In this document: positions 331-62,090 of the stretch, in pieces
Layout of the letters: each line of letters starts with the position of its first letter
Position numbering within the stretch: the stretch's first letter is position 1
Position numbers and translations under genes: made by a program
Source of the DNA: an uncultured Leptospira sp.
Lineage (GTDB): Bacteria; Spirochaetota; UBA4802; UB4802
Length of the DNA stretch: 64,000 nt
Assembly (NCBI GenBank): GCA_964509195.1
Contig: CAZDWJ010000008.1
Span: forward strand, 61,190 to 125,189
Direction of reading: 5' to 3'
The notes under the pieces: model-generated
The model's input: the letters and a program-made list of their open reading frames with translations, nothing else
Database searches by the model: none
Told to the model about the DNA's origin: nothing

Positions 331-987
331 CTAAAAATGTTTTGGTTCAGTATCCCACAATAGTTTGTGCAGTTGAATGTTGAGCCTCACCATAATTCTG
401 TCCCTCAGAATATATTCTGCCAGAGTGTGTGGATTCATAACATTTGCAACTGGCGAAAAATTTATCACGCAGGGAATATTTTTCAAGTACTTCCCTATAA
501 ATTCCTTAGAATAATTATAGTCATTGTCATCAGCAATCACAAATTTTATTTCATCGTGTGGTTGCAGAAGGGGAATATTGGAAAAATTAAATGAATCTGC
601 ATAGCCGCTTGAAGGTGTTTTAATATCAATAATTTTGTGGACGTGTGGTGGCACCTGTGCAATTGAAATACTCCCGTTTGTTTCAAGCTGCAGGGGGTAG
701 TTTTTTTGGGATAGAATATCCAGTAGCAGAAATGTCTCTTCCTGCAGCAATGGTTCACCACCGGTAATTGTGATGTGATGAAGTGAAGGATAAGTGTGTA
801 TGGTTTTAACGATCTGGGTGATAGTTACCGGAGATCCGTCTCGTGCATAGGGAGTATCGCACCACCTGCAGTTGAGATTGCAGCCAGCAAGCCGTATGAA
901 GAGTGAGGGGAAACCAGTGCGGGTTGTTTCGCCCTGCAGGGAATAAAAGATCTCATTGACGCACAGGGTAGTGTTAAATGTGTTCAT
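331..987 (-). CDS. queE: 7-carboxy-7-deazaguanine synthase QueE (radical SAM)
   Basis: 218 aa. It has a CNLNCRWCDT CxxxCxxC motif and an N-terminal FYSLQGE signature typical of QueE, and the size fits. Confidence 0.8.
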   Translation of the reverse strand: MNTFNTTLCVNEIFYSLQGETTRTGFPSLFIRLAGCNLNCRWCDTPYARDGSPVTITQIVKTIHTYPSLHHITITGGEPLLQEETFLLLDILSQKNYPLQLETNGSISIAQVPPHVHKIIDIKTPSSGYADSFNFSNIPLLQPHDEIKFVIADDNDYNYSKEFIGKYLKNIPCVINFSPVANVMNPHTLAEYILRDRIMVRLNIQLHKLLWDTEPKHF

Positions 988-7025: not shown

Positions 7026-8237
7026 TTAATGATTATTATTAACACCATTCAATCCATCTAATTGTGGAATTTCCTCATCAGCCATAGGTGCTTCAAGCAG
7101 GTGTTCTGGCAAAAAGAATGTGTTTGCGATAAGAGTAGGAACAACAGCACTGGTAATAACAGCTGCTATAAGGAAAGAATACTGTGCTTGATCAATTATA
7201 TTGTGAGTTAGTCCAAATAATGCTGCGATTGAACCAAATGTGAGCCCAGTTGACATAAGCAAGGTGTAGTACCAGCGCTCTTTTGTACTTTCTTTGAAAA
7301 TTCCTATTATTGGATAAAGCCCAAATATTTTTGTGATAACCTTTCCACCAAAAAGAATTATAAATGGTAAAGGTGCCAAAAAAATTGCCGGTAAACTTAC
7401 TAAAAAGCCAGCACGTAAGAAATAAATTGGTGTTAAAAATCCTATAGTCAATGTTCGTAATCGGCGCATGAAAAATTCATCTTTTGCAACACTTGAAGCA
7501 AGGACCATCCCTAATATATAGGCGGGAAGTACAGCCTCACTTCCTGACCATAGTGCTAATGCACCTAATGCAAATAACACAAACAAAATCCACTTGGTTC
7601 TGATAGCTGCGGTTCGGTGGCCATAGATTTTTGTTAGCCGCGCAGTTATTGCCGGCATTGCAAAGAAGGTAACTATCGACACTATTATAAAAATAATTGT
7701 TTTGTAGGTAAATGGAGAAAAGATGATGCCAAGTGCAATCACCGTCCCCAAATCATTGACAAAACAAGCTCCTAAGATCCCTTTACCGTACTTTGTTTTG
7801 TTAAATCCATATTCAATCATTACAGCATACACAACAGCCATTGATGTTGTTGACAGGGCTACACCAGCAAGCAAACTTGATTCAAAATTCCAGCCTAAAA
7901 GATAGTATGCAATTAATGCACTTCCAACAAAAGGTGACAGAAAGCCAATAAAGCCAACGACTGTTACTTCTTTGAATGTATCCCTGATAGTGTGGTAGTC
8001 AAGTTCAGCGCCCGCTAAAAACGTCAGCACCACAGCACCCGTGCTGGCAATAAATTTTATCCAGTCAGAATTTGCCTGCATAAAATCGGGATTAAAATAT
8101 TTTGCAAATAGTAAACCTGCTATCGCACCAACAGTTATTTCCATAAGTGCCATTGAAATTTTTAAACGGTTAGCCAATATAGTAGAAATTACAGCAAGGC
8201 CAAGCCATACTGATGCTACTACAAACATAGTAAGCAT
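7026..8237 (-). CDS. Cation:proton antiporter (CPA family) membrane protein
   Basis: About 400 aa polytopic membrane protein with Na+/H+ exchanger-like TM pattern. Start placed at the second ATG (MLTMF...), which has a GGAGGA RBS 5 nt upstream. The ORF track starts 12 nt earlier at 8249. Confidence 0.6.
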   Translation of the reverse strand: MLTMFVVASVWLGLAVISTILANRLKISMALMEITVGAIAGLLFAKYFNPDFMQANSDWIKFIASTGAVVLTFLAGAELDYHTIRDTFKEVTVVGFIGFLSPFVGSALIAYYLLGWNFESSLLAGVALSTTSMAVVYAVMIEYGFNKTKYGKGILGACFVNDLGTVIALGIIFSPFTYKTIIFIIVSIVTFFAMPAITARLTKIYGHRTAAIRTKWILFVLFALGALALWSGSEAVLPAYILGMVLASSVAKDEFFMRRLRTLTIGFLTPIYFLRAGFLVSLPAIFLAPLPFIILFGGKVITKIFGLYPIIGIFKESTKERWYYTLLMSTGLTFGSIAALFGLTHNIIDQAQYSFLIAAVITSAVVPTLIANTFFLPEHLLEAPMADEEIPQLDGLNGVNNNH

Positions 8238-8277
8238 AACATCCTCCATACATAATTAGTAAAATTTTGGCGCAGGT

Positions 8278-8308
8278 AAAAATAAGAAACCTACTGCCAT
8301 GCAGTAGG
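8278..8308 (-). terminator. Rho-independent terminator downstream of the serine-hydrolase gene
   Basis: Perfect palindrome CCTACTGCCATGCAGTAGG (8290-8308), followed on the minus strand by UUUCUUAUUUU. A second hairpin, CTGTTACAGATGGTAACAG, lies at 8369-8387. Confidence 0.6.
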
Positions 8309-8427
8309 AGCCATCAGCCGGAAGGCATTCAACGGGGGACCCCATCCCCAGTTATAGTAGTGCAGCAACTGTTACAGATGGTAACAGTAAAAAGAATAGC
8401 ACTTTTGTCAATAGAATAAAAAATAAT

Positions 8428-9977: not shown

Positions 9978-12134
9978 TTATAATACTTTTTTTCTTATTG
10001 CGAATTGTTTTTTTTCGTGTGATATCGATTGCAATGTGTCTATCTGAGACATTATTTTTGTTAACGTCTTTGTGAGTGCTTCAGTATTTTCATATACGGA
10101 ATTGGTTATTTCAACAAGTTGATTTATAGTAGATGTTATCTGGCTAAGTGTAATTTTTTCCTCCTGTGTTGCAGTTGTTATCTGTGAAGAACCCTGCAAC
10201 ACGACTACCATATTCTCTTCAATGCTTTTAGTCAATTGCTCCTGAGACATACAAAAATCAAGGATAGTGTCTATTGCGTGATTAACCATATACACAGAAC
10301 GCTCAACATCTTCATTTGAATACACCACTGTGCCCATAAGTATTGTCTGGGTTTCAATATCAGAAACTATCTCAGATAAAATTGCCTGAATACTTTTTGA
10401 TTGTTCTAATGATCTATCAGCTAATTTTCCAATTTCATCAGCAACTACAGCAAAGCCCCGGCCATACTCGCCTGCACGTGCGGCCTCAATCGAAGCATTG
10501 AGTGATAAAAGGTTTGTCTTTTCCGCAATATCATTAATGGTTTCAGTTATCTTAAGTATGGTATCAGAATAATTTTTTATTTTTTCTATACCTCTAAGTG
10601 CTTCTGAAAGATGTTCCTTTGTTACCGCAGTTTGGCCTTGGCTTTTGTAACTGAGCTTAACTGCCGTTTTGGCAGCATCGGTAATATGGTTGATGCCTTT
10701 GATTAATTCCATCAGAAGTTCCTTGTTTTTATTAAGCACTGTATCCTGATGCTGTGAGTTAGATGCAATAATATCTACTGTTGATGAAAATTCCTCCAGT
10801 GCTGCTGATGTCTGCTCTATACTAGATGTTTGGTCATGCATGCTGTGTTGCAGAACCTGTGCTGAACGTTCAACTTCCTTTGCAACCTGCTGTAATTCTG
10901 CAATTGACTGATTAATTTTTTGTAAGATTTGTATCAAATCTGCATTCTTTTTTTCAATGTATAGTTTTGAATCAAGGAGTTCCTCAGCAAGTGTTGCGGA
11001 TCGTTGAGACAGTATGGCACCTATACCTAAAATTAGTGCCGGATAACCTAAATTAAGCCAGAAAAAATTTGCATACAATACACCTGAAACAGCAAGTGAA
11101 TCATGTGCTACACATAGCATCATAAAAAGGTACGGGATTAACAGTGTTTTAGCTTCCTTTTGATTTTTTCGTATGCCTTTTATAATGAGTATTCCCCACA
11201 GTATCTGAACGGTAAGCCCAAAGGTTCCTATGACCTCAAACCTCCAGCCTGTAACAGGATCGTTTTCTGTTGCTGAAAGGCTTAGAATGATCATGCATGC
11301 AGCTGTAACTGTAATCACAATCCTGAGTGTTTTGTTAAAACTGGCTGTCACATTTTCAAAGAAGAAATATACAACGATAGCAATAACTGCAGTCAGGGCG
11401 TAGTATATTTTATCCTGTGTATTGAAATCAATAATCCAAAAATGCGGTAAGTAAAAATGCATTGCACTTACACACCACACTAGCGAAATAATTGCAAAAT
11501 ACAGTGTCAGCTTATCTTTGTTTTTCAAATAAAAATACAAAGCAATAATGCCTAAAATAAATGTGAGAAAACTTGTAGCAAGTGGTATATATTCGGCAAG
11601 TAAGGAACGGTAAAAATTTATTACTTTAGCATTAGACAGTGTGGTAATTAAAGGTACTCCATTATATTCAGCATTCTGGTTACTGAACACTCTTATGGCA
11701 ATAACATTTGGCTGGTTATAATTAATGATATGTGAAGGAATACTATAATACCTGAAACTGTTCCATTCAGAGTGGAAGTTTGGGTATTCGCTGCCAGCAG
11801 AGCCAATTTTGTAGCCATTGAAGAAAGTTTGTTCCACATCCCACACTTTGCCTAGTACAAATGCAATGTCATGCTTTTTAAATGATTCTGGTATTACTAC
11901 TGATTTCCTGAGCCATAGATACTGTTTTGTTTTTTTAGGCGATAGTTTCCCGGGAAGGGTAATTGGTTGCAGTGATGAATCATCAAATCCAGGATTTACA
12001 ATTGAAGAATTGTCGCCAGAATATATCTTCCAGTCAGAGTGAATGTCAATAACTGGAACGCCTGTATCACAGCCAGCAGTAATAAGCAAAAATATGAATA
12101 TGGTTATATACTGAAGTAAGATAGATACCTTCAT
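9978..12134 (-). CDS. Methyl-accepting chemotaxis protein with 7TMR-DISM sensor
   Basis: Lipoprotein-type signal (LLITAGC) after a Met with an AGGAAT RBS. A periplasmic domain is followed by a 7-TM block, then a coiled-coil MCP signalling domain ([26 protein letters not shown]). The ORF track extends 93 nt further upstream. Confidence 0.75.
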
Positions 12135-15955: not shown

Positions 15956-17181
15956 TACTCAGATATAATATTTTGATATATAGTTGCCATTTGCATAGCG
16001 GCATTGTCCCAGTTGAAAAGTGTTTTTACACGCTGAATACCCTTGTGCGATAGCTCCTGTAGCAATGTTCTGTTGTGTAGTAGCCTGTCGATGGCATTAG
16101 CCAGTGCCACCTCATCACGGGTAGGCACAACAACTCCAGCATCGCCAACCACTTCCCTCAACGCACCACCGTCACTGGCAATAACTGGTGTACCGCATGC
16201 CATAGCCTCGGCAGCAGGAAAGCCAAACCCCTCGTACACAGACGGCACAATGGCTATTGCAGCTTCATTATAGTGATGCACCAGCTCATCAGTTGAGGCG
16301 GCGCCTACAAATTCTACTTTAGTGCGTACACCTAATGTATCAACAAGCTTCTGGGTGATGCGTCGGTGTGGAGCACCACCATCAATCACTGTCAATGTGG
16401 CCTTGCTTTTAATAAGGGTCAGAGCTTTTAAAAGATATACAAATCCTTTTTTGCCATCTTCAACATTTCCAACAAACAAAAGCTTGTCTGGCTTTTTCTT
16501 AACATGTGGAAGTTTTCTAAAAATTGAGGTATCTAACCCATTATATACCACTGACTGTTTGTGAGGAGGAACGCCAAAATCTTTTGTAATTCTGTTTTTT
16601 GAATCTTCCGAAACTGTAATGATATGGTTAAGCCTTTTTGAAACAATTTGCTGCATTAAAATAGGATAAAACATGACGCCTTTTATTCTGTTAGTAAACG
16701 ATGATGCACGCTCAAGCACATTTTCTAGGTCAATAGTTAATGGATGATGGATAGTGGCTATTACAGGAATACCTAAGGCTTTCATAAAAAGAAGGCCATA
16801 GCCAATACACTGATTGTCATGAATGATGTCAAACTGGAGTTTTTGGTGGAGCTTTCGCAGCATAAAAAAAGCACGATAGCTGAAACCGCTTATTTCAGAG
16901 AACGCACCAAACCGTGAGTGGATATATTCGTATGCGTTAATAGGATTAAAAATATCAAATGGCTTATCCTGTGTGATGAATTCAAAACCTTTTTTGATAT
17001 AGTATTGATTATTTTCTATATAGTGAATGGTAACATTTTCCATTTTGTGTGGATAGGGAGGGCCCACAACTGCATGCACCTGATGCCCCTGACGGGCAAG
17101 AGCTTCCGCTACATATTTAAGGTAAATACCCTGTCCTCCGCAAAAAGGGTTTGCCCTGTAACACAAAAGGCATATCCTCAT
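15946..17181 (-). CDS. Glycosyltransferase family 1 (GT4-type)
   Basis: C-terminal EGFGFPAAEAMACGTPVIASDGGALREVV nucleotide-sugar-binding motif. 411 aa. Confidence 0.8.
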   Translation of the reverse strand: MRICLLCYRANPFCGGQGIYLKYVAEALARQGHQVHAVVGPPYPHKMENVTIHYIENNQYYIKKGFEFITQDKPFDIFNPINAYEYIHSRFGAFSEISGFSYRAFFMLRKLHQKLQFDIIHDNQCIGYGLLFMKALGIPVIATIHHPLTIDLENVLERASSFTNRIKGVMFYPILMQQIVSKRLNHIITVSEDSKNRITKDFGVPPHKQSVVYNGLDTSIFRKLPHVKKKPDKLLFVGNVEDGKKGFVYLLKALTLIKSKATLTVIDGGAPHRRITQKLVDTLGVRTKVEFVGAASTDELVHHYNEAAIAIVPSVYEGFGFPAAEAMACGTPVIASDGGALREVVGDAGVVVPTRDEVALANAIDRLLHNRTLLQELSHKGIQRVKTLFNWDNAAMQMATIYQNIISEYYR

Positions 17182-23163: not shown

Positions 23164-23529
23164 TTATTTTTTGTTTTTATTAAGGGCGATAGTTACTGCA
23201 TCATTAAACCACTGTATAAAAAAAGCCATTCCCTCAACATGAAGGTTGCCTGCTGCTGCCGCATAAAACGATGCTTCTTGAGTTCCATCTTTCAACACAT
23301 TGAATGCGGTTTTTGCATCTGAAAACACCAGCGCAGCATCATAGTGTGCAAGACGCCGCGTTGAAGAGACCACCCCTTTGTTGAAAATGAATGTGCGGCC
23401 TTTGTTGTTTTTTGTTTTTATTGCAATTTTAACATTTACTGTTCCAATGTAGCGCTTAAATGCATTATTGTATTTTGATGCAAATTTTAAGGCCAGTCCC
23501 AGTATGCGAAGTAAGAGAGCGAACCTCAT
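23164..23529 (-). CDS. SCP2 sterol-binding-domain protein
   Basis: 121 aa. SCP2-like pattern DAALVFSDAKTAFNVLKDGTQEASFYAAAAGNLHVEGM. The C-terminus overlaps a copy of the GGCGATAGTTACTG repeat. Confidence 0.45.
   Translation of the reverse strand: MRFALLLRILGLALKFASKYNNAFKRYIGTVNVKIAIKTKNNKGRTFIFNKGVVSSTRRLAHYDAALVFSDAKTAFNVLKDGTQEASFYAAAAGNLHVEGMAFFIQWFNDAVTIALNKNKK
23184..23201 (+). repeat. Copy of the dispersed motif GGGCGATAGTTACTGCAT (core GGCGATAGTT)
   Basis: An 18-mer identical to 57656-57673. It overlaps the last codons (AVTIAL) of the SCP2 gene and lies about 25 nt upstream of the TPP-enzyme start. Confidence 0.7.
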
Positions 23530-25510: not shown

Positions 25511-25570
25511 TTTGCTCCTTATGCTAGATTTGCTAATAGTACCAAACTCTATTTAGCAAAGAGCAAAACA

Positions 25571-25608
25571 TTCACAGGGTGGTTATACACCCTGTGAATG
25601 GTATTTTT
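25571..25608 (+). terminator. Rho-independent terminator after the thiolase gene
   Basis: TTCACAGGGTG-N8-CACCCTGTGAA then TGGTATTTTT. Confidence 0.65.
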
Positions 25609-25624
25609 CCGGCAATGATTGAGG

Positions 25625-25636
25625 GTAACTATCGCC
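25625..25636 (-). repeat. Inverted 12-mer copy (GTAACTATCGCC) upstream of leuC
   Basis: Exact reverse complement of GGCGATAGTTAC, just after the thiolase terminator. Confidence 0.6.
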
Positions 25637-25735
25637 AAAACTGCCATAAAAAACTGAAAATATATAAAAGAATGATACATTTTTTACTATCATAATCCCG
25701 TATAATCAAAACCATTTATGTAAAAGGATACTGTT

Positions 25736-26995: not shown

Positions 26996-27032
26996 AAAGA
27001 GCTATCGCCAAAAAATAACGATGAGGTATAGT

Positions 27033-27528: not shown

Positions 27529-29616
27529 TTACCGAACCTGCTTTATATTTTTGCCATCAAAGATATCTTTCCCTTGTGCTCTAAACGGGATTATATACCA
27601 TCTGCCTTTTTTATATTTTGCCAATTGAAGCAAAGCAGGGTTTGGTAAATCCTGTATAAAATTAGAACTGAATTCCAGTGATATGGCTACATCACTTTCA
27701 TCATGACGGTTGTACTGGCCATTCAATTTAAGTCGTATCTCAGGTGCATTAAATATAAATGAATTGATGGTGATGGCAGGACCGTTAAGATTAAAATTAC
27801 CATATATTTTTTGAAACTCTAAATTAGCTAGTTTATATTTTAAATCCTGAAGCCATACGCTAAGACCATTCTGTAAGCCAGTGTTAGCTAGTTTACCGTT
27901 TTCTACTGAAACCTCAATCTTTCCGTTTATTCTATCAATAATAGGATCTTTTGGTTCGATAGTTACCTGTAATTGGCCTGATACATTACCAAAAAGGCGA
28001 TTTTCATACTCTTTAAGATACGCACTGATATTCTGCAATCGTAAGTTATTATATTTAGCAACAAGTGTTATTTGCGGATTATCTTGTGAGAGTGTGATAA
28101 CACTTCTACCGGTGACATCTCCTCCAAAAACTCTGGCCGTAAATGATGGTAGCGCAATAATATTTTTTGACATTGTGTAATTGCAGTTAACTTTTTCTAT
28201 CACAAGCTGATCTTTATACAATTTTTGCAAAACCAGTTTGCCCGATAGTTCATAAGGGATGTTTATTTCTTTTTTTGATTTTGCAGGTTGTTCAGGTTTT
28301 TTGGTAAGTATTTTATCCAGGTCAACTTCATCTGCTTCAATGTTTATGGTAAACTTTTTTAGCGAAGAATCTACTGTTGATACTGATATGACACAGGGCA
28401 CAGAATATACTGTTACCTGTATGCCATCTTTCTGGAACTGGTTGTTTTTGACAATAAGGCTTGTTTCCTTTAAAGCTATAATAGCATCTTTTTGGCCTAT
28501 AGAAATATTTGATAGCGTTACATCGGCATCAATTACGTTATTTTTATATTCAAAATTTCCATTTATTTCGCCTGAAATATCGCTTACATCAATATTGCCA
28601 AGTAGTGGAGCTATCTCTCTGATTCTAATTGATGCGTCATTGACTTTGATATTTTTAATATCACCATCAAAGTTAAATAATAACTGGTTTACAACAAAGG
28701 TTGAATTTTCTATTTTTCCTTTTGCGTTGGCGATTGTTACTGTTTCTTTGTTGATATTCACGGTACAGAATAGATTGCTTACAAAAAGCATAGAATTGTT
28801 GCTAAGCTTGCAGCTCCCTGTTACAGTTCCCTGAACACTGTTTTTTGTTATCACCAGATTATGTATTGTTCCTGTGAATATGCGGTAGGGCAGTATGCTT
28901 TCAAGATTATTGCCCCAGCGATATACCCATATAAGGTCACAGTTGTGTAACGATACATTGCCATGAATGCTATAGTCTTTTGAAGTTTTAATTAAGCAAT
29001 CACCAGAGATTTTTCCTCTGTTTTGTGGAAGTATGATCGACAGGTTTTTCAATTCTATATCGTCATCATTCAGCTCTACATTGGTATCTATACTGTATGT
29101 GCCTTCCAGTGGCTCGAGTTCTTTTGGTGGGTTTTGCAGGATGACTGTTGTATTATTAAATAATAGTGATTTGATCTCAGTGGTTATAGTAGATTTTTCA
29201 GCTGATAATAGTTCTTTGATAAGCTTTTCAAGGTTAGATGTTGTAAGTTTGTTTTCAGTATAATAAAGTATATTGATAACAGCATCATTGAGTGAGATAT
29301 AATTGATAATAAATTGTTTTTGCAATAAAGGTGCAAGCTGAAACCTGATTGCGGCATCTTTTGAATGTGCAATAAATGGCTTATTTTCGTCTGTGTCAAA
29401 AATATATAATTCAGTTAATTGGACACCTTTAATACTGTAATCTATTGCTCCTATTTTTACAGGCCTATGTAAAGCATCCTGCAAGGTTTGCACAATTATA
29501 GATTTCAATGTTTCTTTTGGGAAGAAATAGGTAAACGCTGCTGCAAAGGCAACAATCAGTAAGATAACAATAGAAAGAACTATCGCACTGTATTTAACTA
29601 CTCTTGCTGGCTTCAC
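27529..29616 (-). CDS. AsmA-family outer-membrane biogenesis protein
   Basis: N-terminal TM anchor then a long beta-rich periplasmic domain, matching the AsmA/DUF748 architecture. 695 aa. Confidence 0.55.
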   Translation of the reverse strand: MKPARVVKYSAIVLSIVILLIVAFAAAFTYFFPKETLKSIIVQTLQDALHRPVKIGAIDYSIKGVQLTELYIFDTDENKPFIAHSKDAAIRFQLAPLLQKQFIINYISLNDAVINILYYTENKLTTSNLEKLIKELLSAEKSTITTEIKSLLFNNTTVILQNPPKELEPLEGTYSIDTNVELNDDDIELKNLSIILPQNRGKISGDCLIKTSKDYSIHGNVSLHNCDLIWVYRWGNNLESILPYRIFTGTIHNLVITKNSVQGTVTGSCKLSNNSMLFVSNLFCTVNINKETVTIANAKGKIENSTFVVNQLLFNFDGDIKNIKVNDASIRIREIAPLLGNIDVSDISGEINGNFEYKNNVIDADVTLSNISIGQKDAIIALKETSLIVKNNQFQKDGIQVTVYSVPCVISVSTVDSSLKKFTINIEADEVDLDKILTKKPEQPAKSKKEINIPYELSGKLVLQKLYKDQLVIEKVNCNYTMSKNIIALPSFTARVFGGDVTGRSVITLSQDNPQITLVAKYNNLRLQNISAYLKEYENRLFGNVSGQLQVTIEPKDPIIDRINGKIEVSVENGKLANTGLQNGLSVWLQDLKYKLANLEFQKIYGNFNLNGPAITINSFIFNAPEIRLKLNGQYNRHDESDVAISLEFSSNFIQDLPNPALLQLAKYKKGRWYIIPFRAQGKDIFDGKNIKQVR

Positions 29617-33381: not shown

Positions 33382-33471
33382 TAACTATCGCTCATAATAA
33401 TTATAATATACAAATAATATATGCAATGCAATAGAATTATGAAAAAAATATTTTTTAAGCGATAGTTACTG
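33382..33471. repeat. Inverted pair of motif copies (TAACTATCGCT ... AGCGATAGTTACTG) flanking a 65-nt AT-rich spacer
   Basis: An 11-bp perfect inverted repeat at 33382-33392 and 33458-33468 in the glgX-downstream / coiled-coil-upstream intergenic region. Confidence 0.6.
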
Positions 33472-36082: not shown

Positions 36083-36113
36083 ATCAGACCATATGATAAT
36101 CTGATTTTTTTTG
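36083..36113 (+). promoter_or_regulatory. Leader hairpin plus T8 immediately upstream of the uxuA start (possible attenuator or operator)
   Basis: ATCAGA-N11-TCTGAT inverted repeat followed by TTTTTTTT. It lies downstream of a TATAAT at 36074-36079 and 13 nt before the uxuA ATG. Confidence 0.35.
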
Positions 36114-36125
36114 TGGACAAAAACC

Positions 36126-37121
36126 ATGATTAAAATTGCTGAATTGCTTCCCCCGCGCCCTTCTGCATTGTGGACCATGGTAAAGCAATGTGGAATAGAG
36201 TATGTTGTTGGCGGTATGCAGCATTACGCTGGCTGGGAAAATATGCCAAAGGACTTCTGGCCATGGAGCTATAATTCACTGGTTCATATTAAGACCAATT
36301 ATGAAAACGGAGGATTTACGCTTGGAGTCATTGAATCCCGACCTCCAATGGAAAAAATAAAATTAGGCCTGCCGGGAAGGGATGAAGAAATTGAAAATGT
36401 CATAATGCTTATACAGAACATGGGGAAACTGGGCATTCCCGTATGGTGTTATGAATGGATGCCCGTGTTTGGTTGGACAAGGACTTCAACAACAACGCCC
36501 ATCCGCGGGGGTGCAATGGCTACCTCTTATGATCATGCACTAATGGAAAAGGCTCCAATGACTGAGTACGGAATTGTAACCGAAGAAACATTATGGAAAA
36601 ATCTACAGTATTTTCTAAACGCCGTTATCCCTGAAGCAGAAAAAGCAGGTGTAAAATTAGCCATGCATCCAGATGATCCACCCATTTCTCCTATTCGCGG
36701 TGTTGCGCGTATTATGCGCTCGGTTGAACATTTTCAAAAGTTACTGGATCTTTATCCAAGTGAGTTTAATGGCATTGCATTGTGTCAGGGTAATTTTGCA
36801 TTGATGACGGATGATCTTCCTGCTGTAATCAGAAAATTTGGAAAACAGGGTAAAATCTTTTTTGTCCATTTCAGGAATGTAAAGGGAACCGCACACAAAT
36901 TTACTGAAACATTTCATGACGATGGGATGATTGATATGTACGAATGCATGAAGGCATACTATGAGATTGGCTATGAGGGACTGATGCGTCCTGATCATGT
37001 TCCCACTATGGAAGGCGATAGCAATGATAATCCTGCCTATTCCTCAATTGGTAGGCTTTTTGCCATTGGGTACATAAAGGGCCTGGCGGAAGCAGTTGAA
37101 AAAAATCAATGCGGAAGGTGA
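36126..37121 (+). CDS. uxuA: D-mannonate dehydratase
   Basis: Blocks CYEWMPVFGWTRT, LAMHPDDPP, MRPDHVPTM and AYSSIGRLFAIGYIKGLAEAV align with UxuA (CYNFMPVLDWTRT, MAVHPDDPP, MRPDHGHQM, GYSAIGRLKGLAEV). ATG at 36126 is preferred over the TTG at 36111, which lies inside a leader hairpin/T-tract. Confidence 0.8.
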   Translation: MIKIAELLPPRPSALWTMVKQCGIEYVVGGMQHYAGWENMPKDFWPWSYNSLVHIKTNYENGGFTLGVIESRPPMEKIKLGLPGRDEEIENVIMLIQNMGKLGIPVWCYEWMPVFGWTRTSTTTPIRGGAMATSYDHALMEKAPMTEYGIVTEETLWKNLQYFLNAVIPEAEKAGVKLAMHPDDPPISPIRGVARIMRSVEHFQKLLDLYPSEFNGIALCQGNFALMTDDLPAVIRKFGKQGKIFFVHFRNVKGTAHKFTETFHDDGMIDMYECMKAYYEIGYEGLMRPDHVPTMEGDSNDNPAYSSIGRLFAIGYIKGLAEAVEKNQCGR

Positions 37122-37853: not shown

Positions 37854-40700
37854 GTGTATGGGAAACTATCTATTCTATTTTTGATACTTTTTTTTAATGT
37901 TGGGTATGCGATAGCAGCCACGTTCAATGTACTCATCTATCCAACGCCACTAGTATACATACACAATCAATCATATTTTCAGAGAATCATTATACAGGCT
38001 CATCAAGAGTTTGAAGGTGAAATTGTTGCCTGGATGGATGGTGTCAGCACAAAGAAGATAGTTACTACTCCAACAACTAATACAGCTATCGACTGTAAAA
38101 GAAATAGTATCAACTCGCCATCACAATTGAAAATTACTATAAGAAGGAATGATTCTATAGTTGCACAAAAAATCCTGTCAATACCTCCGGTAAAGGAATG
38201 GAAAATCTACTGTGTGCCCTTTGCGCACGTAGACATAGGTTTTACACAATCACAAAAGAATGTCCGCATTCAGAATCTGCGCAATATCGATACACATCTT
38301 TCCTTGTGCCAAAAGACAAAAAACTATCCGCCCGGCTCTCGATTTAAGCTTTTTACGGAAGTGAGCTGGCCTATTATTGAATACCTCAATGACCCGGCAA
38401 CACCTCACAGCAACAAGAATACACTTATTAAAGCATTGAAAAATGGTGATGTTGAGCTGGGTGCTTTTGTCATTTCTCATCAAAATAGGTTTATGAGTAC
38501 TTATGCACTTTTATCATCAGTGCGGCATACACTTACTATCGCACAAAAATACAACGTTGCCGTGAAAACTGCATGTATTCATGATGTCATGGATTTTTCC
38601 AAATTGCCAAAAGTCCTATATGCCAATAATATACCATACTGCCTGATTGGCCCCAATGACTCACGATATATAGTGCCGCCCCTTTTTTATCTAGCATCAC
38701 CTGATGGAAGCGCAAAGGTGCTGGCGTGGCATACCGTTGGGCTTAACGGGTATGGCGAAAATTTTGATTTGAATATGCGTCTTACATTGCCCTTCAAAGA
38801 CGATGATTTTAGCATAATGGAAACCAGCGTTGCACAGCATTTGGCGCAACTTGAAAAAGGATATCCCACAGAAGAAATTTCACGGTATTATGATTATGCA
38901 AACAAACAGTGGAACTATCCCTATGATGCATATCTTTTACCGTATTATCCGTCCCAGGGTGGCGACAATCAGCCTCAGACGATTGTACCTTCAGAAATTG
39001 CAAAGAGATGGAATGCAAAATTTATTAATCCAAAGATAGTCATTGCAACGCCTGCGGATTTCTTTGATTATGTATCAGCTGCGTATGGCGCACAGATTCC
39101 GATTATAAAAGGGGAATTGCCGCCATTCTGGGGTGAACAGATATATTTAGATTTTATTCAGGTTGATCCGCAGCGATTATCAATTAACTACTGGTATGAT
39201 TATGCACACCATTCACGCGGGATACATATGGTACAATCGCTACTTCTTGGTAAGCCTGTTGATATTACATCGTATAGTACACAAAGTCTTGAAGGGTACA
39301 TGGCAATCATACTTAATAATGACCACAATCCCAGACCTGTGCCATTCGGGAAAACGCATTACACAAAGCAGGATGTTCAAGACTGGATGGACACACGCAA
39401 TCAGTGGGTATATGCGCCTTTGAATGTTATGAAGGATGCAAAAGATGTACAGCAAAGCCGTAAGGAAGATGCTTTGTGGACGCTGGTGAACACACAAACA
39501 AATCCTCTAATTCTTGAAAATGCATTCTACCGTATTGCATTTGATAAAACGAAAGGCTGTATTACCAGTATTTTTGATGCACAGCTACAAAAGGAATTGG
39601 TAAACACACAGCACCGCTACGGCTTTAATCAATACGTTATAGGGGTACGGGGTGAAAACACTGGGAAGCGCAATTATTTTGACACCCAGGAAGGATTCAA
39701 ACGCGTCATATCCACGGTATATACAAATCCCAACAACGATTACAAAATAATTGTTAAAGGGTCAGAGCGTTCCTATTACAAGGGTATGGAATTGCTCTCT
39801 GAATTTTTGCATAAAGCATTTGGCATAAAGTTACCACCAACTTTGTTGAAAGTAGCGTATTTTTTCTATCAGCTGTTTACACCATCACTGTCGCTTACAC
39901 AGGAGATTATCATACCTGCTAATGAAAAGCGAATTGATTGTATACAACATTTTGAAGGTACTGCACCTCAAATAGCGGAACATTACTTTGCCTATCCTTT
40001 GGTTTTTGATGAGCTATCGTATGATTCTGGCTTTACGGTTGTAAAATGGAAGAGTCAAGACAATAGCGGTGACCTTATCCCAGCCGCTAAAAATACTGCA
40101 CCATTTAGAAGCATTAACGATACGCTGTATCCATTTCAGTGGATGTACGCAATCCCAACTTCTTTGTATTGTGATGGGTTTGTGTTGCAAAAAGACCGTT
40201 CACACTATGCATTATTTATCACACACAATAGCAAGGCGATAGTTCCAGATAATGATTCAAGTGCATTTTATCACTGTTGCATTGGATGGTCGTTGTGGGG
40301 TACTTTAGGGCTGGGACGCAATTTGCCAGATACTATCGCATTTAAAAGCACTTTTACAAGCTTTACGGCACACACAAAGAATGAAGCGATAGCAACTGCG
40401 TACAAACTTACATTTGATATATCAGGCCACACGAATCAATCGGCTGTAGAGTCACGTAATAGTAATGTGCGTGTTGTATATCTTCAACCTCTTTCAGAAA
40501 AAAGGATTGTTGTTGGTGTTTATGAGCTATCAGGCACGATGCAGTTTACTGAGCTTGTGATAAACACAAAACGTAGGATACTCAAGGCATATCATTCAGA
40601 CATTAATGGAAAAAAAATCAAAGCGCTGCAATTATCAGGAACTTCATTACCATTGAGTCTACATCCACATCAACTATCGTTTATAACATTTGAATTATAA
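37854..40700 (+). CDS. Secreted large glycoside hydrolase, GH38-like N-terminal signature (alpha-mannosidase family?)
   Basis: 948 aa with signal peptide. IYCVPFAHVDIGFT resembles the GH38 N-terminal metal-site motif (hlVpHsHwDreW). The family call is tentative. GTG start with GGAGG RBS. Confidence 0.45.
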   Translation: MYGKLSILFLILFFNVGYAIAATFNVLIYPTPLVYIHNQSYFQRIIIQAHQEFEGEIVAWMDGVSTKKIVTTPTTNTAIDCKRNSINSPSQLKITIRRNDSIVAQKILSIPPVKEWKIYCVPFAHVDIGFTQSQKNVRIQNLRNIDTHLSLCQKTKNYPPGSRFKLFTEVSWPIIEYLNDPATPHSNKNTLIKALKNGDVELGAFVISHQNRFMSTYALLSSVRHTLTIAQKYNVAVKTACIHDVMDFSKLPKVLYANNIPYCLIGPNDSRYIVPPLFYLASPDGSAKVLAWHTVGLNGYGENFDLNMRLTLPFKDDDFSIMETSVAQHLAQLEKGYPTEEISRYYDYANKQWNYPYDAYLLPYYPSQGGDNQPQTIVPSEIAKRWNAKFINPKIVIATPADFFDYVSAAYGAQIPIIKGELPPFWGEQIYLDFIQVDPQRLSINYWYDYAHHSRGIHMVQSLLLGKPVDITSYSTQSLEGYMAIILNNDHNPRPVPFGKTHYTKQDVQDWMDTRNQWVYAPLNVMKDAKDVQQSRKEDALWTLVNTQTNPLILENAFYRIAFDKTKGCITSIFDAQLQKELVNTQHRYGFNQYVIGVRGENTGKRNYFDTQEGFKRVISTVYTNPNNDYKIIVKGSERSYYKGMELLSEFLHKAFGIKLPPTLLKVAYFFYQLFTPSLSLTQEIIIPANEKRIDCIQHFEGTAPQIAEHYFAYPLVFDELSYDSGFTVVKWKSQDNSGDLIPAAKNTAPFRSINDTLYPFQWMYAIPTSLYCDGFVLQKDRSHYALFITHNSKAIVPDNDSSAFYHCCIGWSLWGTLGLGRNLPDTIAFKSTFTSFTAHTKNEAIATAYKLTFDISGHTNQSAVESRNSNVRVVYLQPLSEKRIVVGVYELSGTMQFTELVINTKRRILKAYHSDINGKKIKALQLSGTSLPLSLHPHQLSFITFEL

Positions 40701-42560: not shown

Positions 42561-43262
42561 ATGAACATTTTTTTTATATTAATTGGACAGGCAACCGTTG
42601 TTATTAACGTAAATGGGATAGTCTTTATGACCGATCCCTGGTGGGGCTCTTTTGAATTTTTGCGTGCAGTCCCATTGTCAATAAATCCAGAGGAAATATC
42701 ACCTCTGCATTATATGCTAGTTTCACATAATCACATTGATCATTGGTGTGAGAGTGCCATCAAACTGGCAAAAGAAAAGGATTGCATGGTTATAGGGTCA
42801 ACAAAATCGGTAAAACGTGCCCGTAAAAAGAGTGTTAAACAATGTAAGGCTCTGACCCCGGGCGATAGTGTTGATTGCAATGGTGTTATGGTGTATGCGG
42901 TTCCAGGATTTCATCCATTTGCAAAGGATGCAATAGGCTTTATCATACAAAAAGGTAATATTACACTGTATTTTTCGGGGGATACGCTGTACACTGAAAA
43001 TTTACTCAAGGCTCTGACCCCATACTCAGTAACTATCGCCATGATACAGGTTGCCTGTTCCACCTACCCACTGGTGGGTAAAGACGGGATGGATTTGGAG
43101 GCGGCATCACGCTTTGTTGCAGATGTAAAACCTGGGATTGTAATACCCATACACTATCAGATAAAGGGAAAGTACCTCACTTACGCGCAGTTACAAAACT
43201 GGAACGTTGATGCACAAAAAATTATTTTGCCCCATGGGAAGGAGTTTCATTTGCAAATATAA
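42561..43262 (+). CDS. MBL-fold metallo-hydrolase
   Basis: HNHIDHW (HxHxDH) motif. 233 aa. Confidence 0.7.
   Translation: MNIFFILIGQATVVINVNGIVFMTDPWWGSFEFLRAVPLSINPEEISPLHYMLVSHNHIDHWCESAIKLAKEKDCMVIGSTKSVKRARKKSVKQCKALTPGDSVDCNGVMVYAVPGFHPFAKDAIGFIIQKGNITLYFSGDTLYTENLLKALTPYSVTIAMIQVACSTYPLVGKDGMDLEAASRFVADVKPGIVIPIHYQIKGKYLTYAQLQNWNVDAQKIILPHGKEFHLQI
43027..43040 (-). repeat. Inverted copy of the 14-mer (CAGTAACTATCGCC) inside the MBL-hydrolase CDS
   Basis: Exact reverse complement of GGCGATAGTTACTG. Confidence 0.65.
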
Positions 43263-49508: not shown

Positions 49509-51242
49509 TTACTTATGTGGTATTATAATTGTAAATGTAGAACCATTTGATGAAGAAGTTACTCCAATTGACCAACCTAATATAAGTGCTGCATGTTTCA
49601 CAATTGAAAGGCCAAGTCCTGTACCGCCAGTTTCGCGTGAACGACTTTTATCCACGCGGTAGAAACGCTCAAAGATCCTATTAATTTCATCATGAGGGAT
49701 TCCTATGCCAGTATCAGTGATATATATTGTGAGCAATTGAGGGTTTGAAGTAGCTGTGATAGTGATTGAACCGTGCTCATTGTTGTAATTAATGGCATTG
49801 TCAATTATATTGAAGAATATCTCTTCAGCTAAAAATGCATTCCCCAAAATATTTTCAGGCAGGGATTCAATGTCCATAACTATCGCCAGGTTCTTTTTAT
49901 GAATTTTTGGCATTAGCAGATCAACACACTGTGAAATGACTTTTTTAAGATTAACAGATTCGCTGGTGATGTAGGACGATGTTTCTAATTGATTGAGTTT
50001 AAGCATATCGTTGATGATAGCATTCTGGCGTTCAACATTGGCCAGGGCACTTTCAATAAAATTCTCAGCTGTTTTCTGGTCGCAAATATTGTCTTTAATT
50101 GTTTCTAAATATCCGCGGATGATACTGATAGGTGTTTTTAATTCATGTGAAAGATTGCCCACAAGATCCGATTTGAGTTGCTGTATGCGCTTTTGTTCCG
50201 TGACATCATGCATCAGTAGCAGGGTGCCCGTAGCAGGTTCAGCAAACGGATAGATAAATATCTGAAAATGATTCCCAGCTATTGTTTCTTCAAACGATAT
50301 CCTCTGCTTCTGAGAAAAGGCAACATGTATTTTTGCGTTCAACTCGCTGTGGCGGATGACCGTGAAATAATATTTGTTGGTAATGCTTTCAGGGTACTCA
50401 AAGCAGTGAGCAAATGCTTTATTGTGAATAGTAATTTTTTTATCTTCATCGATTAGTGCAATGGGGTCATGGATGCTTTCAATAATCATGAAAAGTTTGT
50501 TCTTTTCATTGGTAAGTTCGTTGATGCGCTGCTGTATGTTATCTGCCAGCTGATTCATGGCTTTTTGCAAATATCCCATTTCATCATCTTTGTAATTGAG
50601 AATACGTGCACCAAGATCACCATTGAAAAACCTGTGTATGAACTGCAATGAATCCTTGATTGGTTTTGTGAAAGCAGTGGCAAACAGTGCAGTAACTATA
50701 ACACTTATCACCAATACAACAATACCAACAGCAAGAATATTTTTAGTGATGGATTCAATCAATGCGTTAATAGTATTCAATGATTTAGCTGTGCGGATAT
50801 AGTAATAATTGTAATATGAGGCAACATATAGCATATCGGCATTCATTGTAGTACTGTATCGTACAGACATACCGGTGCCCTTTTTTCGTGCTTCCAGGAT
50901 TTCAGGGCGGTATAAGTGGTTTTCCATTAAATCAGGATTGGCATCTGAATCAAAAATGACGGTACCATCATTCTGTATGATAGTAATGCGCAAAGAACTT
51001 TTCTGAGCAACATTTTTTAACGCAGTTGCTATCTCATTGTTAAAAAACATTTTGCTCACTGGTTTGTGAAATGAAAGGAGGTAGGTGTTTATATATTCAA
51101 TATTTTGCTGCAATTCAACTTTTAAAAATATTCTGAATTCATTCTGTATATGGCGTTGAATGTATAATAAAAGAAGCGAAATAAAAAGGATTAATGCTAT
51201 AGAATAAACAATGATTAATTTTGATTTAAGGCTCTGTATCAT
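49509..51242 (-). CDS. phoR: Phosphate-regulon sensor histidine kinase
   Basis: N-terminal TM, HAMP/PAS region, HisKA H-box (HELKTPISIIRGYLETI) and HATPase_c G-boxes (GGTGLGLSIVKH). Confidence 0.8.
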   Translation of the reverse strand: MIQSLKSKLIIVYSIALILFISLLLLYIQRHIQNEFRIFLKVELQQNIEYINTYLLSFHKPVSKMFFNNEIATALKNVAQKSSLRITIIQNDGTVIFDSDANPDLMENHLYRPEILEARKKGTGMSVRYSTTMNADMLYVASYYNYYYIRTAKSLNTINALIESITKNILAVGIVVLVISVIVTALFATAFTKPIKDSLQFIHRFFNGDLGARILNYKDDEMGYLQKAMNQLADNIQQRINELTNEKNKLFMIIESIHDPIALIDEDKKITIHNKAFAHCFEYPESITNKYYFTVIRHSELNAKIHVAFSQKQRISFEETIAGNHFQIFIYPFAEPATGTLLLMHDVTEQKRIQQLKSDLVGNLSHELKTPISIIRGYLETIKDNICDQKTAENFIESALANVERQNAIINDMLKLNQLETSSYITSESVNLKKVISQCVDLLMPKIHKKNLAIVMDIESLPENILGNAFLAEEIFFNIIDNAINYNNEHGSITITATSNPQLLTIYITDTGIGIPHDEINRIFERFYRVDKSRSRETGGTGLGLSIVKHAALILGWSIGVTSSSNGSTFTIIIPHK

Positions 51243-51249
51243 TATGCTG

Positions 51250-51930
51250 TTACCCTTTTAACCCGTAGCCAACGCCAGAATACGTCTTGATGGCTTCCTT
51301 ATAATGCCCTAACTTTTTCCTTAAATTCATAATATGCACGTCAACCGTTCTGTCAATTACATATACATTATCTCCGCGAATACTGTCGATGATGTTATCA
51401 CGGGAAAATATTTTGCCAGGGTATTGCATGAAGAGTTTAAGAATAAGAAATTCGGTTTTTGTTAAATCAACGGGTTCTTTGTCGATAGTTACTGAAAATT
51501 TTTCTGGATACAGTGCAATGCCTTTATATGTTAGGACTTCTTTCGGTGTTTCTTCTTTGCCATGGACACGCCGCAAGATTGCTTTCACACGGGCAATGAG
51601 TTCGTGTATGCTAAATGGTTTGGTGATGTAGTCATCAGCTCCCAATTCAAGCCCTAACACTTTATCAAGCTCTGCTGATTTTGCTGACAGGAATAAAATG
51701 GGGATTTCTTTTAAATTGCTGGATGCCCGGATCTGCTTACACAGATCCAATCCATCCATACCGCTCATCATGATGTCAAGAATTAAAAGATCAGGTTTGG
51801 CGATAGCTAACTGTTTTAAAACCTCTTCAGCTGAAGCAAATGTAAAAACATCATACCCATTTTTTTGAAGATTGACTTTCAGGATCTCGCGAATATCCTT
51901 TTCATCATCAACAACATATATTTTTGGCAT
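51250..51930 (-). CDS. phoB: OmpR-family response regulator
   Basis: Receiver domain (VVDDEKDIREIL...D at 52-55) and a winged-helix C-terminal domain (GYGLKG end). It lies in the pho operon. Confidence 0.85.
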   Translation of the reverse strand: MPKIYVVDDEKDIREILKVNLQKNGYDVFTFASAEEVLKQLAIAKPDLLILDIMMSGMDGLDLCKQIRASSNLKEIPILFLSAKSAELDKVLGLELGADDYITKPFSIHELIARVKAILRRVHGKEETPKEVLTYKGIALYPEKFSVTIDKEPVDLTKTEFLILKLFMQYPGKIFSRDNIIDSIRGDNVYVIDRTVDVHIMNLRKKLGHYKEAIKTYSGVGYGLKG

Positions 51931-57656: not shown

Positions 57657-57673
57657 GGCGATAGTTACTGCAT
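57656..57673 (+). repeat. Copy of the dispersed motif GGGCGATAGTTACTGCAT
   Basis: An identical 18-mer that begins on the last base of the stop codon of the patatin-like gene. Confidence 0.7.
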
Positions 57674-60359: not shown

Positions 60360-62090
60360 ATGAGAATGTCACGCTATCTTATTCCAACGCTCAAAGAAGA
60401 TCCTGCAGATGCAGTGATAACCAGCCACAAGCTTATGATACGTGCAGGGCTTATCCGGAAAGAATCAGCTGGTATGTATATCTATCTGCCATCAGGATTG
60501 CGTGTTTTGCAAAAGATTATTAATATAGTGCGCGAAGAAATGAATAAAGCTGGTGCGTTAGAGTTCTTAATGCCGGAGCTTACCAATGCAGATCTTTGGA
60601 AAGAGTCGGGGCGCTGGCATACCATGGGCCCTGAAATGATACGCATAAAGGACCGCAATGGACTTGAATATGCCCTGGCACCAACGCATGAAGAAGCATT
60701 CACCAATGCAATCCGCATGATTGTAACCTCTTACAGGGATTTACCTGTCAATGCATATCAAATCAACACTAAATTTCGTGATGAGATTCGCCCGCGATTT
60801 GGTGTTATGCGCAGCAAAGAATTCATAATGAAGGATGCGTATTCGTTTGATATAGATGAAGCCGGACTTGAGCGCTCATACCAGATAATGCGGCAGACGT
60901 ACCGAAATATCTTCAAACGGTGCGGATTGGAGACAATTCCGGTAGAAGCTGATACTGGTTCAATGGGGGGAAGCGATTCGGAAGAATTCATGGTGGCATC
61001 TGAGGTTGGGGAAGAGATTTTGCTTTTGTGTGATGCATGTGGCTATAAGTCCAATCAGGAACGGGCCACCTGTCAGTATGAACTATCGCCCAATAAAGAA
61101 AATGCCGAAGCACTTGAAATAGTAGATACCCCTGATGTGCGCACAATTGATGAGCTGGTGCAATTTTTTGGATGCAGTGCACATGCATTTTTAAAAAGCC
61201 TTATTTACGTTGCCGACGGTATGCCGGTGATGGCTGTGGTGCCAGGTGATCGCGAAATAAACGAGGTGAAACTAAAAAATGCGTTGGGTGCAGTTGAATT
61301 AGAGCTTGCTCCTGACACGGTTGTGGAAGAGGTGACAGGAGCGCCTGTTGGTTTTGCGGGGCCAATTTTAGCAAAAGGTAAACAGGTGCGCATCATCTTT
61401 GATACTCAGGTAAAATATATTGGCAACGGCATTACAGGAGCTAATGAAAAAGACAAACATTATAAAGGAGTCAATCCCGGAAGAGATTTTGCCATTACGC
61501 AAGAGGCTGACATTACTCTGGTGGTTGCCGGGGATAAATGTCCACACTGCGGCTATCCTCTCAAAGAAAAAAAGGGGATTGAGGTGGGGCACATTTTTAA
61601 GTTAGGCTATAAGTACACAAAGTCAATGAATGTAACAGTGCTTGACCAGAATGGAAAGGCTATTACCCCCATTATGGGCTGTTATGGGATTGGCGTTAAC
61701 CGCACTATGGCAGCGGTAATTGAGCAGCATCATGATGAGCGAGGGATTATCTGGCCAATGAGCGTTGCACCATTTCACGTGCATCTGGTGAGTCTGGCTA
61801 AAAATGAAGCTGAAGAACAATTAGCTGACCAGGTGTATATGCTGCTTTCAACGCACGGGATAGAGATTCTCTATGATGATCGCAAAGCAAGCCCCGGCTT
61901 TAAGTTTGGCGATGCTGATCTTATTGGCATACCAGTACGCCTCACATTGGGGAAAGCATTTTTTGGCGATAGTTCCTCAATTGAGGTCAAACTGCGCAAC
62001 AAAGATGAAAAACAAATCGTTGCTAAAGACGATATTGTGTCGTATTGCAAAAAGCTAATTGCCGACCAATTATCCACCCTGAATTCATAG
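60360..62090 (+). CDS. proS: Proline--tRNA ligase (bacterial type with INS editing domain)
   Basis: MRMSRYLIPTLKEDPADAVITSHKLMIRAGLIRK is the canonical ProS N-terminus. 576 aa. AAGAGGAAA RBS. Confidence 0.9.
   Translation: MRMSRYLIPTLKEDPADAVITSHKLMIRAGLIRKESAGMYIYLPSGLRVLQKIINIVREEMNKAGALEFLMPELTNADLWKESGRWHTMGPEMIRIKDRNGLEYALAPTHEEAFTNAIRMIVTSYRDLPVNAYQINTKFRDEIRPRFGVMRSKEFIMKDAYSFDIDEAGLERSYQIMRQTYRNIFKRCGLETIPVEADTGSMGGSDSEEFMVASEVGEEILLLCDACGYKSNQERATCQYELSPNKENAEALEIVDTPDVRTIDELVQFFGCSAHAFLKSLIYVADGMPVMAVVPGDREINEVKLKNALGAVELELAPDTVVEEVTGAPVGFAGPILAKGKQVRIIFDTQVKYIGNGITGANEKDKHYKGVNPGRDFAITQEADITLVVAGDKCPHCGYPLKEKKGIEVGHIFKLGYKYTKSMNVTVLDQNGKAITPIMGCYGIGVNRTMAAVIEQHHDERGIIWPMSVAPFHVHLVSLAKNEAEEQLADQVYMLLSTHGIEILYDDRKASPGFKFGDADLIGIPVRLTLGKAFFGDSSSIEVKLRNKDEKQIVAKDDIVSYCKKLIADQLSTLNS

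Follow-up and report, generated by a model that had tools for sequence, protein, structure and literature searches.

Few lineages are known to maintain short, strand-symmetric DNA words at very high abundance: Neisseriaceae, with the DNA uptake sequence (DUS; GCCGTCTGAA and its dialects), Pasteurellaceae, with the uptake signal sequence (USS; core AAGTGCGGT), and cyanobacteria, with HIP1. Each of these words has been informative on transformation, recombination or chromosome organisation. The uptake receptor of Neisseria is ComP. DUS have been described as strongly conserved elements of permissive core regions that seldom occur in acquired genes (PMC2397512). For HIP1, selection and a nucleoid role were inferred by Xu, Lawrence and Durand from hyper-abundance and conservation (PMC5861425). 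Here we describe a word of this type in a 64-kb stretch of DNA from an uncultured spirochaete (contig CAZDWJ010000008.1, positions 61,190 to 125,189; hereafter the window, meaning the whole stretch analysed). The word is the 14-mer GGCGATAGTTACTG (word 1), which we also followed through the 10-mer GGCGATAGTT and the core GGCGATAG; a second, unrelated word, GGGGTCAGAGC(M), is called word 2. We are highly confident that word 1 is a hyper-abundant, strand-independent word of one low-GC clade, written by substitution at permissive sites and kept by a force acting at the DNA level.

The counts of word 1 rest on the window and on ~400 kb of loci from related genomes, i.e., on part of the genomes. 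The window has nine exact copies of GGCGATAGTT on either strand, at 11938(+), 23185(+), 25627(-), 40235(+), 43031(-), 49878(-), 57657(+), 61081(-) and 61965(+), where dinucleotide shuffles gave a mean of 0.07 (maximum of 1) and a third-order Markov model predicts 0.125. A k-mer survey returned 23 copies of the core GGCGATAG in the window against 1.4 expected, and the 14-mer occurred 3, 3, 5 and 21 times with 0, 1, 2 and 3 mismatches, respectively (0, 0, 0.17 and 2.6 expected). The enrichment over chance is ~20- to 100-fold. Perfect copies have window densities of ~0.05 per kb for the 14-mer and 0.14 per kb for the 10-mer, and recognisable sites, with the graded halo of mismatched copies counted in, come at ~1 per 2 kb. 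Extrapolation from the window density gives an estimate of hundreds to ~1,500 copies genome-wide.

A preliminary description of this DNA had reported a strongly over-represented oligomer. The effect is real and larger than claimed there, as the core counts show, and the copies are far more numerous than the third-order Markov expectation. The enrichment of the 10-mer holds, but not the tally of eight, which overlooked the copy at 40235(+) and placed at 11939 the one that is really at 11938. Among longer copies, the three exact 14-mers and the one-mismatch copies at 33458 and 51481 had been correctly located, but the one at 28729 had been missed. The 18-mer noted as identical at 23184 and 57656 is GGGCGATAGTTACTGCAT. 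The gene assignments also stand: MCP (11938), metallo-beta-lactamase-fold (43031), pho-operon histidine kinase (49878), phoB-like response regulator (51481) and proS (61081 and 61965). The sites of the window, with their state in related genomes where given, are as follows.

23185..23198, plus strand: exact 14-mer GGCGATAGTTACTG, inside the 3' end of a short open reading frame (ORF) on the minus strand and ~20 nt upstream of the ribosome-binding site of the thiamine pyrophosphate (TPP)-enzyme gene; exact in L200, L201, L202 and L203, with a neighbouring T-tract of differing length.
57657..57670, plus strand: exact 14-mer, beginning directly after the TAG stop of gene 56553-57656; core kept in 4 of 4 aligned genomes.
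43027..43040, minus strand: exact 14-mer in the metallo-beta-lactamase-fold gene, antisense, reading VTIA; a copy of word 2 lies 5 nt further on; conserved in L032.
28729..28742, plus strand: one-mismatch copy GGCGATTGTTACTG, within an AsmA-family gene.
33458..33471, plus strand: one-mismatch copy AGCGATAGTTACTG, in the spacer separating a glgX-like gene from a gene of 556 aa, where it forms the right arm of an inverted pair; conserved in L200-L203.
33382..33391, minus strand: AGCGATAGTT (plus strand AACTATCGCT), which completes the inverted pair as its left arm, at a distance of ~74 nt.
51481..51494, plus strand: one-mismatch copy GTCGATAGTTACTG, in the phoB-like gene, antisense, reading SVTID; identical in L115 and L118, with unrelated codons in the outgroup L117.
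25623..25636, minus strand: two-mismatch copy GGCGATAGTTACCC, between thiolase and leuC, 23 nt past a terminator hairpin; exact copy in L200 and L202.
40235..40248, plus strand: two-mismatch copy GGCGATAGTTCCAG, in a 948-aa GH38-like gene, reading AIV; weaker copies nearby at 40327(-) and 40385(+).
49874..49887, minus strand: two-mismatch copy GGCGATAGTTATGG, sense within the gene of the phoR-like kinase, reading AIV; conserved in the CALEUQ relative.
61965..61978, plus strand: two-mismatch copy GGCGATAGTTCCTC, in proS, reading GDS, within a variable loop that is one residue longer than in outgroups.
61081..61090, minus strand: exact 10-mer in proS, antisense, reading LSP with the rare codons CTA-TCG.
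11938..11947, plus strand: exact 10-mer in the MCP gene, antisense.
817..830, plus strand: two-mismatch copy GGTGATAGTTACCG, in a radical-SAM gene.
51799..51808, plus strand: variant GGCGATAGCT, in the phoB-like gene, antisense, reading AIA; in L115 the site is GGCGATAGTT and reads TIA.
27000..27009, minus strand: variant GGCGATAGCT, in the 25-nt leuC-leuD spacer, with TTTTTT before it.

The consensus of 40 independent copies from the window and related genomes gives the full motif TTnnG-GGCGATAGTTACTG-nnnAW, whose information content is confined to positions -5 to +18 (~24 nt). Positions 2-9 (GCGATAGT) are nearly invariant, tolerance of single mismatches being limited almost entirely to positions 1 and 10-14. 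The flanks, with a T-tract at -5/-4 and A at +17/+18, are AT-rich and weakly conserved. The word is asymmetric and non-palindromic, and DNA folding of six copies revealed no hairpin (z-scores of -0.7 to +1.3). Since the sequences around the copies are unrelated and the copies do not fold, word 1 is a short asymmetric duplex word rather than a miniature inverted-repeat transposable element (MITE), a repetitive extragenic palindromic (REP) element or a hairpin. A MITE or any larger repeat is ruled out by the lack of flank conservation past -5 to +18 and by the fact that more than half of the copies are intragenic, while the folding z-scores rule out a REP or hairpin element. The likeness to sigma-54, IHF, DnaA-box, parS and EbfC (GTnAC) sites was assessed informally, by eye, against the consensus sequences, and none fits.

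The copies are conserved between genomes. Orthologous segments of six related genomes were aligned to the window (~74-82% nucleotide identity), and the core 8-mers were fully conserved in 13 of the 18 site-by-genome comparisons, against ~22% for random 8-mers. Third-codon identity was 86.7% within the 10-nt core and 57.8% outside it (Fisher test; P = 5e-9), and non-coding identity was 90% within the word and 76% outside (P = 7e-5); these P values are indicative only, because the comparisons lack phylogenetic independence. Among intergenic copies, those at 23185 and 25627 and the pair 33385/33458 are kept in 4 or 5 genomes, and beside such retained copies a T-tract changes in length and a terminator hairpin has been swapped for unrelated sequence. 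Variable loops of ProRS and PhoB hold word 1 and read ELSP, FFGDS, LAIAK and SVTID in the clade, where outgroups have unrelated residues over the same length +/-1. As the loops keep their length and carry no 14-nt insertion, word 1 must have arisen by substitution, imprinting the proteins. An A/T residue difference between species (GCT ATC GCC vs ACT ATC GCC) corresponds to the C/T permitted at motif position 9. These comparisons are strong sequence evidence for maintenance at the DNA level, pointing to selection on the DNA itself as what keeps word 1.

Three accessory islands of relatives (~9.5 kb) held 0 or 1 core copies where ~3-4 would be expected from the clade density, a small sample. 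These islands belong to the ADH/TPP-enzyme neighbourhood, a variable hotspot (L200 1-4719, L201 179-2220, L202 1579-4377; ~19-21.5 kb in the window), whose cargo, each in one relative, comprises a Type I restriction-modification (R-M) system, a HepT/MNT toxin-antitoxin pair and a PLD-SNF2 helicase. The inverted pair at 33382-33471 is also found at L200 17709-17798, L202 17113-17199 and L203 11582-11669, i.e., in 4 of 5 genomes, with a spacing of 73-76 nt. Its spacer, which has the glgX-like gene on one side and on the other the gene of 556 aa, itself without a family match, is AT-rich and promoter-like (TTGCATTGCAT...TATAAT-like), and the layout resembles an operator, differing in this from the remaining copies of word 1. 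Within 25569-25735, relatives have unrelated hairpins in place of the thiolase terminator hairpin (25569-25600), and a block of ~90 nt upstream of leuC is almost invariant and starts exactly at the motif (25623). This block may be a leuCD leader or promoter.

The gene content of the window is that of ordinary housekeeping chromosome (glyS, leuCD-like genes, thiolase, TPP enzyme, pst/pho and proS) and includes no mobile genes. Within genes, word 1 uses every stop-free frame, reading AI(A/V) or GDS in sense and (T/A)IA or LS in antisense, with 46 sense and 44 antisense copies. It is built from rare codons (GCG, GCC, CTA and TCG, each accounting for 9-13% of its own codon family) and produces an excess of codon pairs: CTA-TCG (10 vs 1.1 expected), ACT-ATC (16 vs 5.1) and GCG-ATA (12 vs 6.1). 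More than half of the strong copies lie within genes, and 20 of the 44 12-mer copies are intergenic, although non-coding DNA makes up 12-18% of the sequence. Many spacer copies abut or overlap stop codons, since the TAG of the word itself (TAA on the other strand) is the stop, and certain copies occupy very small spacers of convergent genes. Among the copies examined there was no fixed placement relative to promoters or terminators; in tandem spacers, 9 were forward and 3 reverse. No regular spacing was detected in 64 kb (coefficient of variation of 0.84, P = 0.2), a length too short for periods of 10-90 kb.

GC skew is positive across the entire window. When independent clade loci were pooled, the strong sites were divided between the G-rich and C-rich strands 26:26 (at most 1 mismatch) and 43:36 (at most 2), and a 75% skew of the Chi type was rejected (P ~1e-4, with GC skew as a proxy for the leading strand). 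In the window alone, the counts lean slightly but not significantly towards the plus strand (8:3 with at most 2 mismatches; 13:10 for the 8-mer). Several proposals of the preliminary description can be judged from these data. A signal at the level of DNA, rather than of codons or peptides, is borne out, and a peptide or codon effect is ruled out by the use of all open frames, both strands and rare codons, by the enrichment in non-coding DNA and by the conservation at synonymous sites. The suspicion that the copies could be pieces of one larger element, such as a MITE, did not hold, as they share ~24 nt at most. The Chi-like option fails on the strand split. Inverted pairs after genes, in the sense of the terminators of Neisseria, were not recovered either: we found the single pair 33385/33458, with its promoter-like spacer of ~60 nt, and the terminator hairpin at 25569-25600 stands beside the motif. 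A terminator role was rejected, because this hairpin adjoins one copy without containing it and is itself not conserved.

Comparison of ProRS and LeuC placed the window in an uncultured Spirochaetota lineage with ~38% GC. An exact scan for the 14-mer, using one genome per species (185,579 species), returned at least 113 matching stretches. Among the 113 matches listed, 31 belong to 8 Spirochaetota metagenome-assembled genomes (MAGs), and the remaining genomes have one match each, as chance predicts. The clade includes GCA_026414805.1, GCA_040756435.1, GCA_029572435.1, CALEUQ01, JARYLT01, DYLU01, JBBFLA01, DAOLVF01, DCUV01/UBA2205 and the JGI contig Ga0495054_000020, and its sister genomes include GCA_053578275.1 and GCA_035408725.1. 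Densities were then counted excluding the copy that located each locus. Among clade genomes, each one for which 8 kb or more had been sampled had 0.13-0.36 core copies per kb. The controls gave 0.043 per kb in 580 kb of loci from unrelated genomes, 0.043 per kb in 834 kb of metagenome loci (from the LeuC scan, relatives with at most 72% identity) and 0.029 per kb in 1 Mb of viral contigs, the latter consisting of single chance-level matches that are uninformative on the phages of this clade. Together these controls amount to ~2.4 Mb at background density. The nearest sister lineages showed no enrichment, with 2 core 8-mers in 21.7 kb of L117 (ProRS identity of 74%, GC of 52%) and 0 in 21.3 kb of L204 (LeuC identity of 82%, GC of 55%). 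Genomes with as little as 85% identity in ProRS, or 89% in LeuC, still carry word 1, whose range is limited to one clade of uncultured, low-GC Spirochaetota.

Two groups of loci in these scans call for a remark. The MAG "Leptospira biflexa isolate SulCav_AS07-7_37_12" (DYLU01; L015, L044, L052, L078, L083, L104, L111 and L114) carries both words at the density typical of the clade, so that its label reflects either a clade close to Leptospiraceae or a mis-assignment. Two control matches from Aliterella cyanobacterial MAGs (L068 and L107) hold 3 copies of GGCGATAG each, which are probably one-off variants of extended HIP1 GGCGATCGCC.

Word 2 is also hyper-abundant, with 6 copies in the window against 0.02 expected and 27 in the clade loci against 0.1. 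Its copies in the window are listed below.

16416-16425, plus strand: word 2.
39759-39768, plus strand: word 2.
41550-41559, plus strand: word 2.
42848-42859, minus strand: word 2.
43010-43021, minus strand: word 2.
63194-63205, minus strand: word 2.

In the clade it was found in L044, L078, L111, L114, L028, L032, L099, L089 and other loci. Word 2 occurs in either orientation without conserved flanks, its orthologous sites are conserved, and its frequency in controls is that of the background (0.005 per kb). It is absent from the loci of the JARYLT01 MAG (0 in 56 kb), which carry word 1. The two words co-occur at chance level, which rules out a composite of both. Since word 2 shares the behaviour of word 1, two independent words act alike in these genomes.

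The properties of word 1 can now be set beside those of the described systems. Like DUS, it is a hyper-abundant, non-palindromic word of 10-14 nt, found on both strands, in genes as well as outside them, with an enrichment in spacers and at gene ends, located at permissive sites yet highly conserved, shared by a clade and absent outside it, and apparently rare in acquired islands (in the small sample available for word 1). It differs in sequence and phylum, its perfect copies are ~5-10x less dense, its inverted pairs form no terminators and a second unrelated word coexists with it. With USS it has in common a near-invariant short core flanked by weaker AT-rich stretches within about one helical turn, a surrounding halo of one-off variants and an imprint on proteins in tolerant frames, whereas its sequence is unrelated and its density lower. 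As GGCGATAGTTACTG is related to neither GCCGTCTGAA nor AAGTGCGGT, it is no known DUS dialect or USS type and is at most an analogue of them. The likeness to HIP1 lies in an over-representation within the 15- to 300-fold range, conservation in and between ORFs, an origin by substitution and the lack of a role as a peptide, RNA or expression signal (PMC5861425). The core and extended HIP1 GGCGATCGCC also have GGCGAT-G in common, and for both words the function is unsettled between nucleoid structure and a transformation signal. HIP1 is however a palindrome with the methylation sites CGATCG and GATC, whereas word 1 is asymmetric and longer. With ops (GGCGGTAGnnTG, the RfaH site) word 1 shares GGCG-TAG followed downstream by TG, but with 4 nt before the TG instead of 2. 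The ops element is rare and restricted to operon leaders and the non-template strand, whereas word 1 comes at 46:44 and ~1 per 2-7 kb; an ops/RfaH site is ruled out by the number of copies and the absence of transcription bias. In the searchable literature, strings of word 1 were found only within primers. With a peptide or codon effect, larger repeats, structured elements, transcription-strand signals and polar signals excluded, word 1 is left in the small class of maintained words to which DUS, USS and HIP1 belong, as a case from a distinct phylum, and it is from this class that we infer a function.

The single most likely mechanism, which we propose tentatively, is that word 1 serves as a self-DNA tag for uptake and transformation and is spread by molecular drive. 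The machinery of DNA uptake or transformation would contain a component that recognises the duplex word by its sequence, in the manner of DUS and USS, and fragments carrying the word would be preferentially taken up and recombined. Alleles bearing the word would then displace those lacking it, through molecular drive and mutation-selection balance. Such a drive would spread the word on both strands, leave a halo of near matches and preserve the copies present. The preliminary description had already compared the behaviour of the oligomer to that of uptake sequences, and the analogy is reinforced by its strand symmetry, strong core with AT-rich flanks, halo, permissive sites, conservation and clade specificity. 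The match of these features to DUS/USS, including the apparent scarcity in islands, is why a self-DNA tag is placed first. In a more far-reaching version, which we consider slightly less probable, an uncultured lineage of Spirochaetota would have evolved a sequence-specific system of its own for recognising self-DNA in uptake or recombination, with GGCGATAGTTACTG and possibly also GGGGTCAGAGC as the tag.

Several points weigh against a self-DNA tag. The hosts are uncultured, so the likeness to DUS stays an analogy. No competence, pilus or DNA-receptor gene was found in the window or in the loci of relatives (whole MAGs were not covered). To our knowledge, sequence-specific natural transformation is unreported in spirochaetes, and a literature search found no uptake sequence described for them. 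Known DUS and USS genomes have one dominant word each, and here the unrelated GGGGTCAGAGC coexists in most clade genomes. Perfect copies of word 1 are sparser than DUS/USS, which come at roughly 1 per kb. No terminator-forming inverted pairs were found, spacing in the 64 kb was no more regular than random, and the depletion in accessory islands is not significant. Finally, conservation alone fits uptake drive, cis-acting chromosomal selection or biased repair alike.

Cis-acting selection is the basis of a second reading, somewhat less probable in our view, in which word 1 is a chromosomal word like HIP1, i.e., a site for an abundant nucleoid or chromosome-organising protein or for cis structure or maintenance, kept by ordinary purifying selection. 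Hyper-abundance with conservation in and between ORFs, the basis of the case made for HIP1 (PMC5861425), is seen for word 1 as well. Two words of different phylogenetic spread are no harder to explain by two DNA-binding proteins than by uptake, certain copies fill tiny spacers of convergent genes, and the core GGCGATAG has 7 of the 8 bases of extended HIP1 GGCGATCG. Word 1 is not palindromic, though, no periodicity emerged from a stretch that is too short for periods of 10-90 kb, and no candidate protein is known. HIP1 itself is perhaps an uptake or transformation signal (bioRxiv 10.64898/2026.06.24.733823). Since HIP1 is now argued to be a transformation signal, this reading and uptake may converge.

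Under biased repair, word 1 would be neutral and have no function: a mutational bias akin to very short patch (VSP) repair, arising from sequence-specific repair or linked to methylation, would repeatedly "correct" near-copies into it. We regard this as unlikely. The origin by substitution instead of insertion and the graded halo of 1 to 3 mismatches would be expected from it, the two words could correspond to two lineage-specific enzyme systems, and the Type I R-M island in the orthologous neighbourhood of one relative shows that modification systems are exchanged among these genomes. Known biases of the VSP type act on sites of 4-6 nt and produce an enrichment of about two-fold or less. The information of word 1, ~15-24 nt, and its enrichment of 20- to 100-fold are beyond that range, its weakly conserved AT-rich flanks are hard to account for by a repair enzyme and a specificity of 14 nt is greater than that of known methyltransferases.

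Even less probable is an operator of a global transcription factor, in which the intergenic copies would be functional and the intragenic ones incidental. Full-length copies show about twice the enrichment in spacers, and several adjoin conserved promoter-like blocks, namely the leuC block and the inverted pair 33385/33458 (4 of 5 genomes). Yet more than half of the strong copies are intragenic and conserved at synonymous sites, orientation and distance to downstream genes are inconsistent, many copies lie at stops or between convergent genes, and ~1 site per 2-7 kb is far beyond the needs of a regulon.

The two weakest explanations are both highly improbable. A polar translocase or nuclease signal, such as Chi (RecBCD/AddAB) or the FtsK-orienting and SpoIIIE-recognised sequences (KOPS/SRS), would share with word 1 the scatter of over-represented short words within genes and could draw on the non-significant plus excess of the window, but Chi and KOPS measure 5-8 nt and are co-oriented with replication, whereas word 1 has at least 14 nt, ~twice the length of any known Chi/KOPS, with AT-rich flanks, and is evenly split between strands in the pooled loci. 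Fragments of a larger element (MITE, REP or excision footprint) or a peptide or codon artefact could account for the 18 nt common to 23184 and 57656 but not for the absence of information outside -5 to +18 and of hairpins, for insertions of a single codon at most relative to outgroup proteins, or for the use of all open frames, both strands and rare codons with a higher density in non-coding DNA.

Two further features of the window are unrelated to the words. A fluoride riboswitch (RF01734; 43.8 bits, E = 8e-9) at 8298-8358 on the minus strand immediately precedes a gene of the Na+/H+-exchanger family (7026-8249) instead of the usual crcB. ARAGORN called a 92-nt "tRNA-Tyr" at 36794-36885 (plus strand) inside the uxuA-like coding sequence (36111-37121), which is probably a false positive.

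Word 1 would be a fourth independent case of a maintained, strand-symmetric and hyper-abundant word, in another phylum, with a long asymmetric motif and a co-resident second word. It is a sharp marker for binning and for spotting DNA of the clade in metagenomes. Its clean boundary, from presence at ~85% ProRS identity and above to absence at 74%, makes the clade a natural comparative system in which genes appearing together with the word (receptors, methyltransferases or repair enzymes) can be sought, and thereby what such words are for. If word 1 is indeed a self-DNA tag, it would imply an unknown DNA receptor, and the biology of uptake sequences would reach a phylum in which neither natural transformation nor a word of this type has been described.

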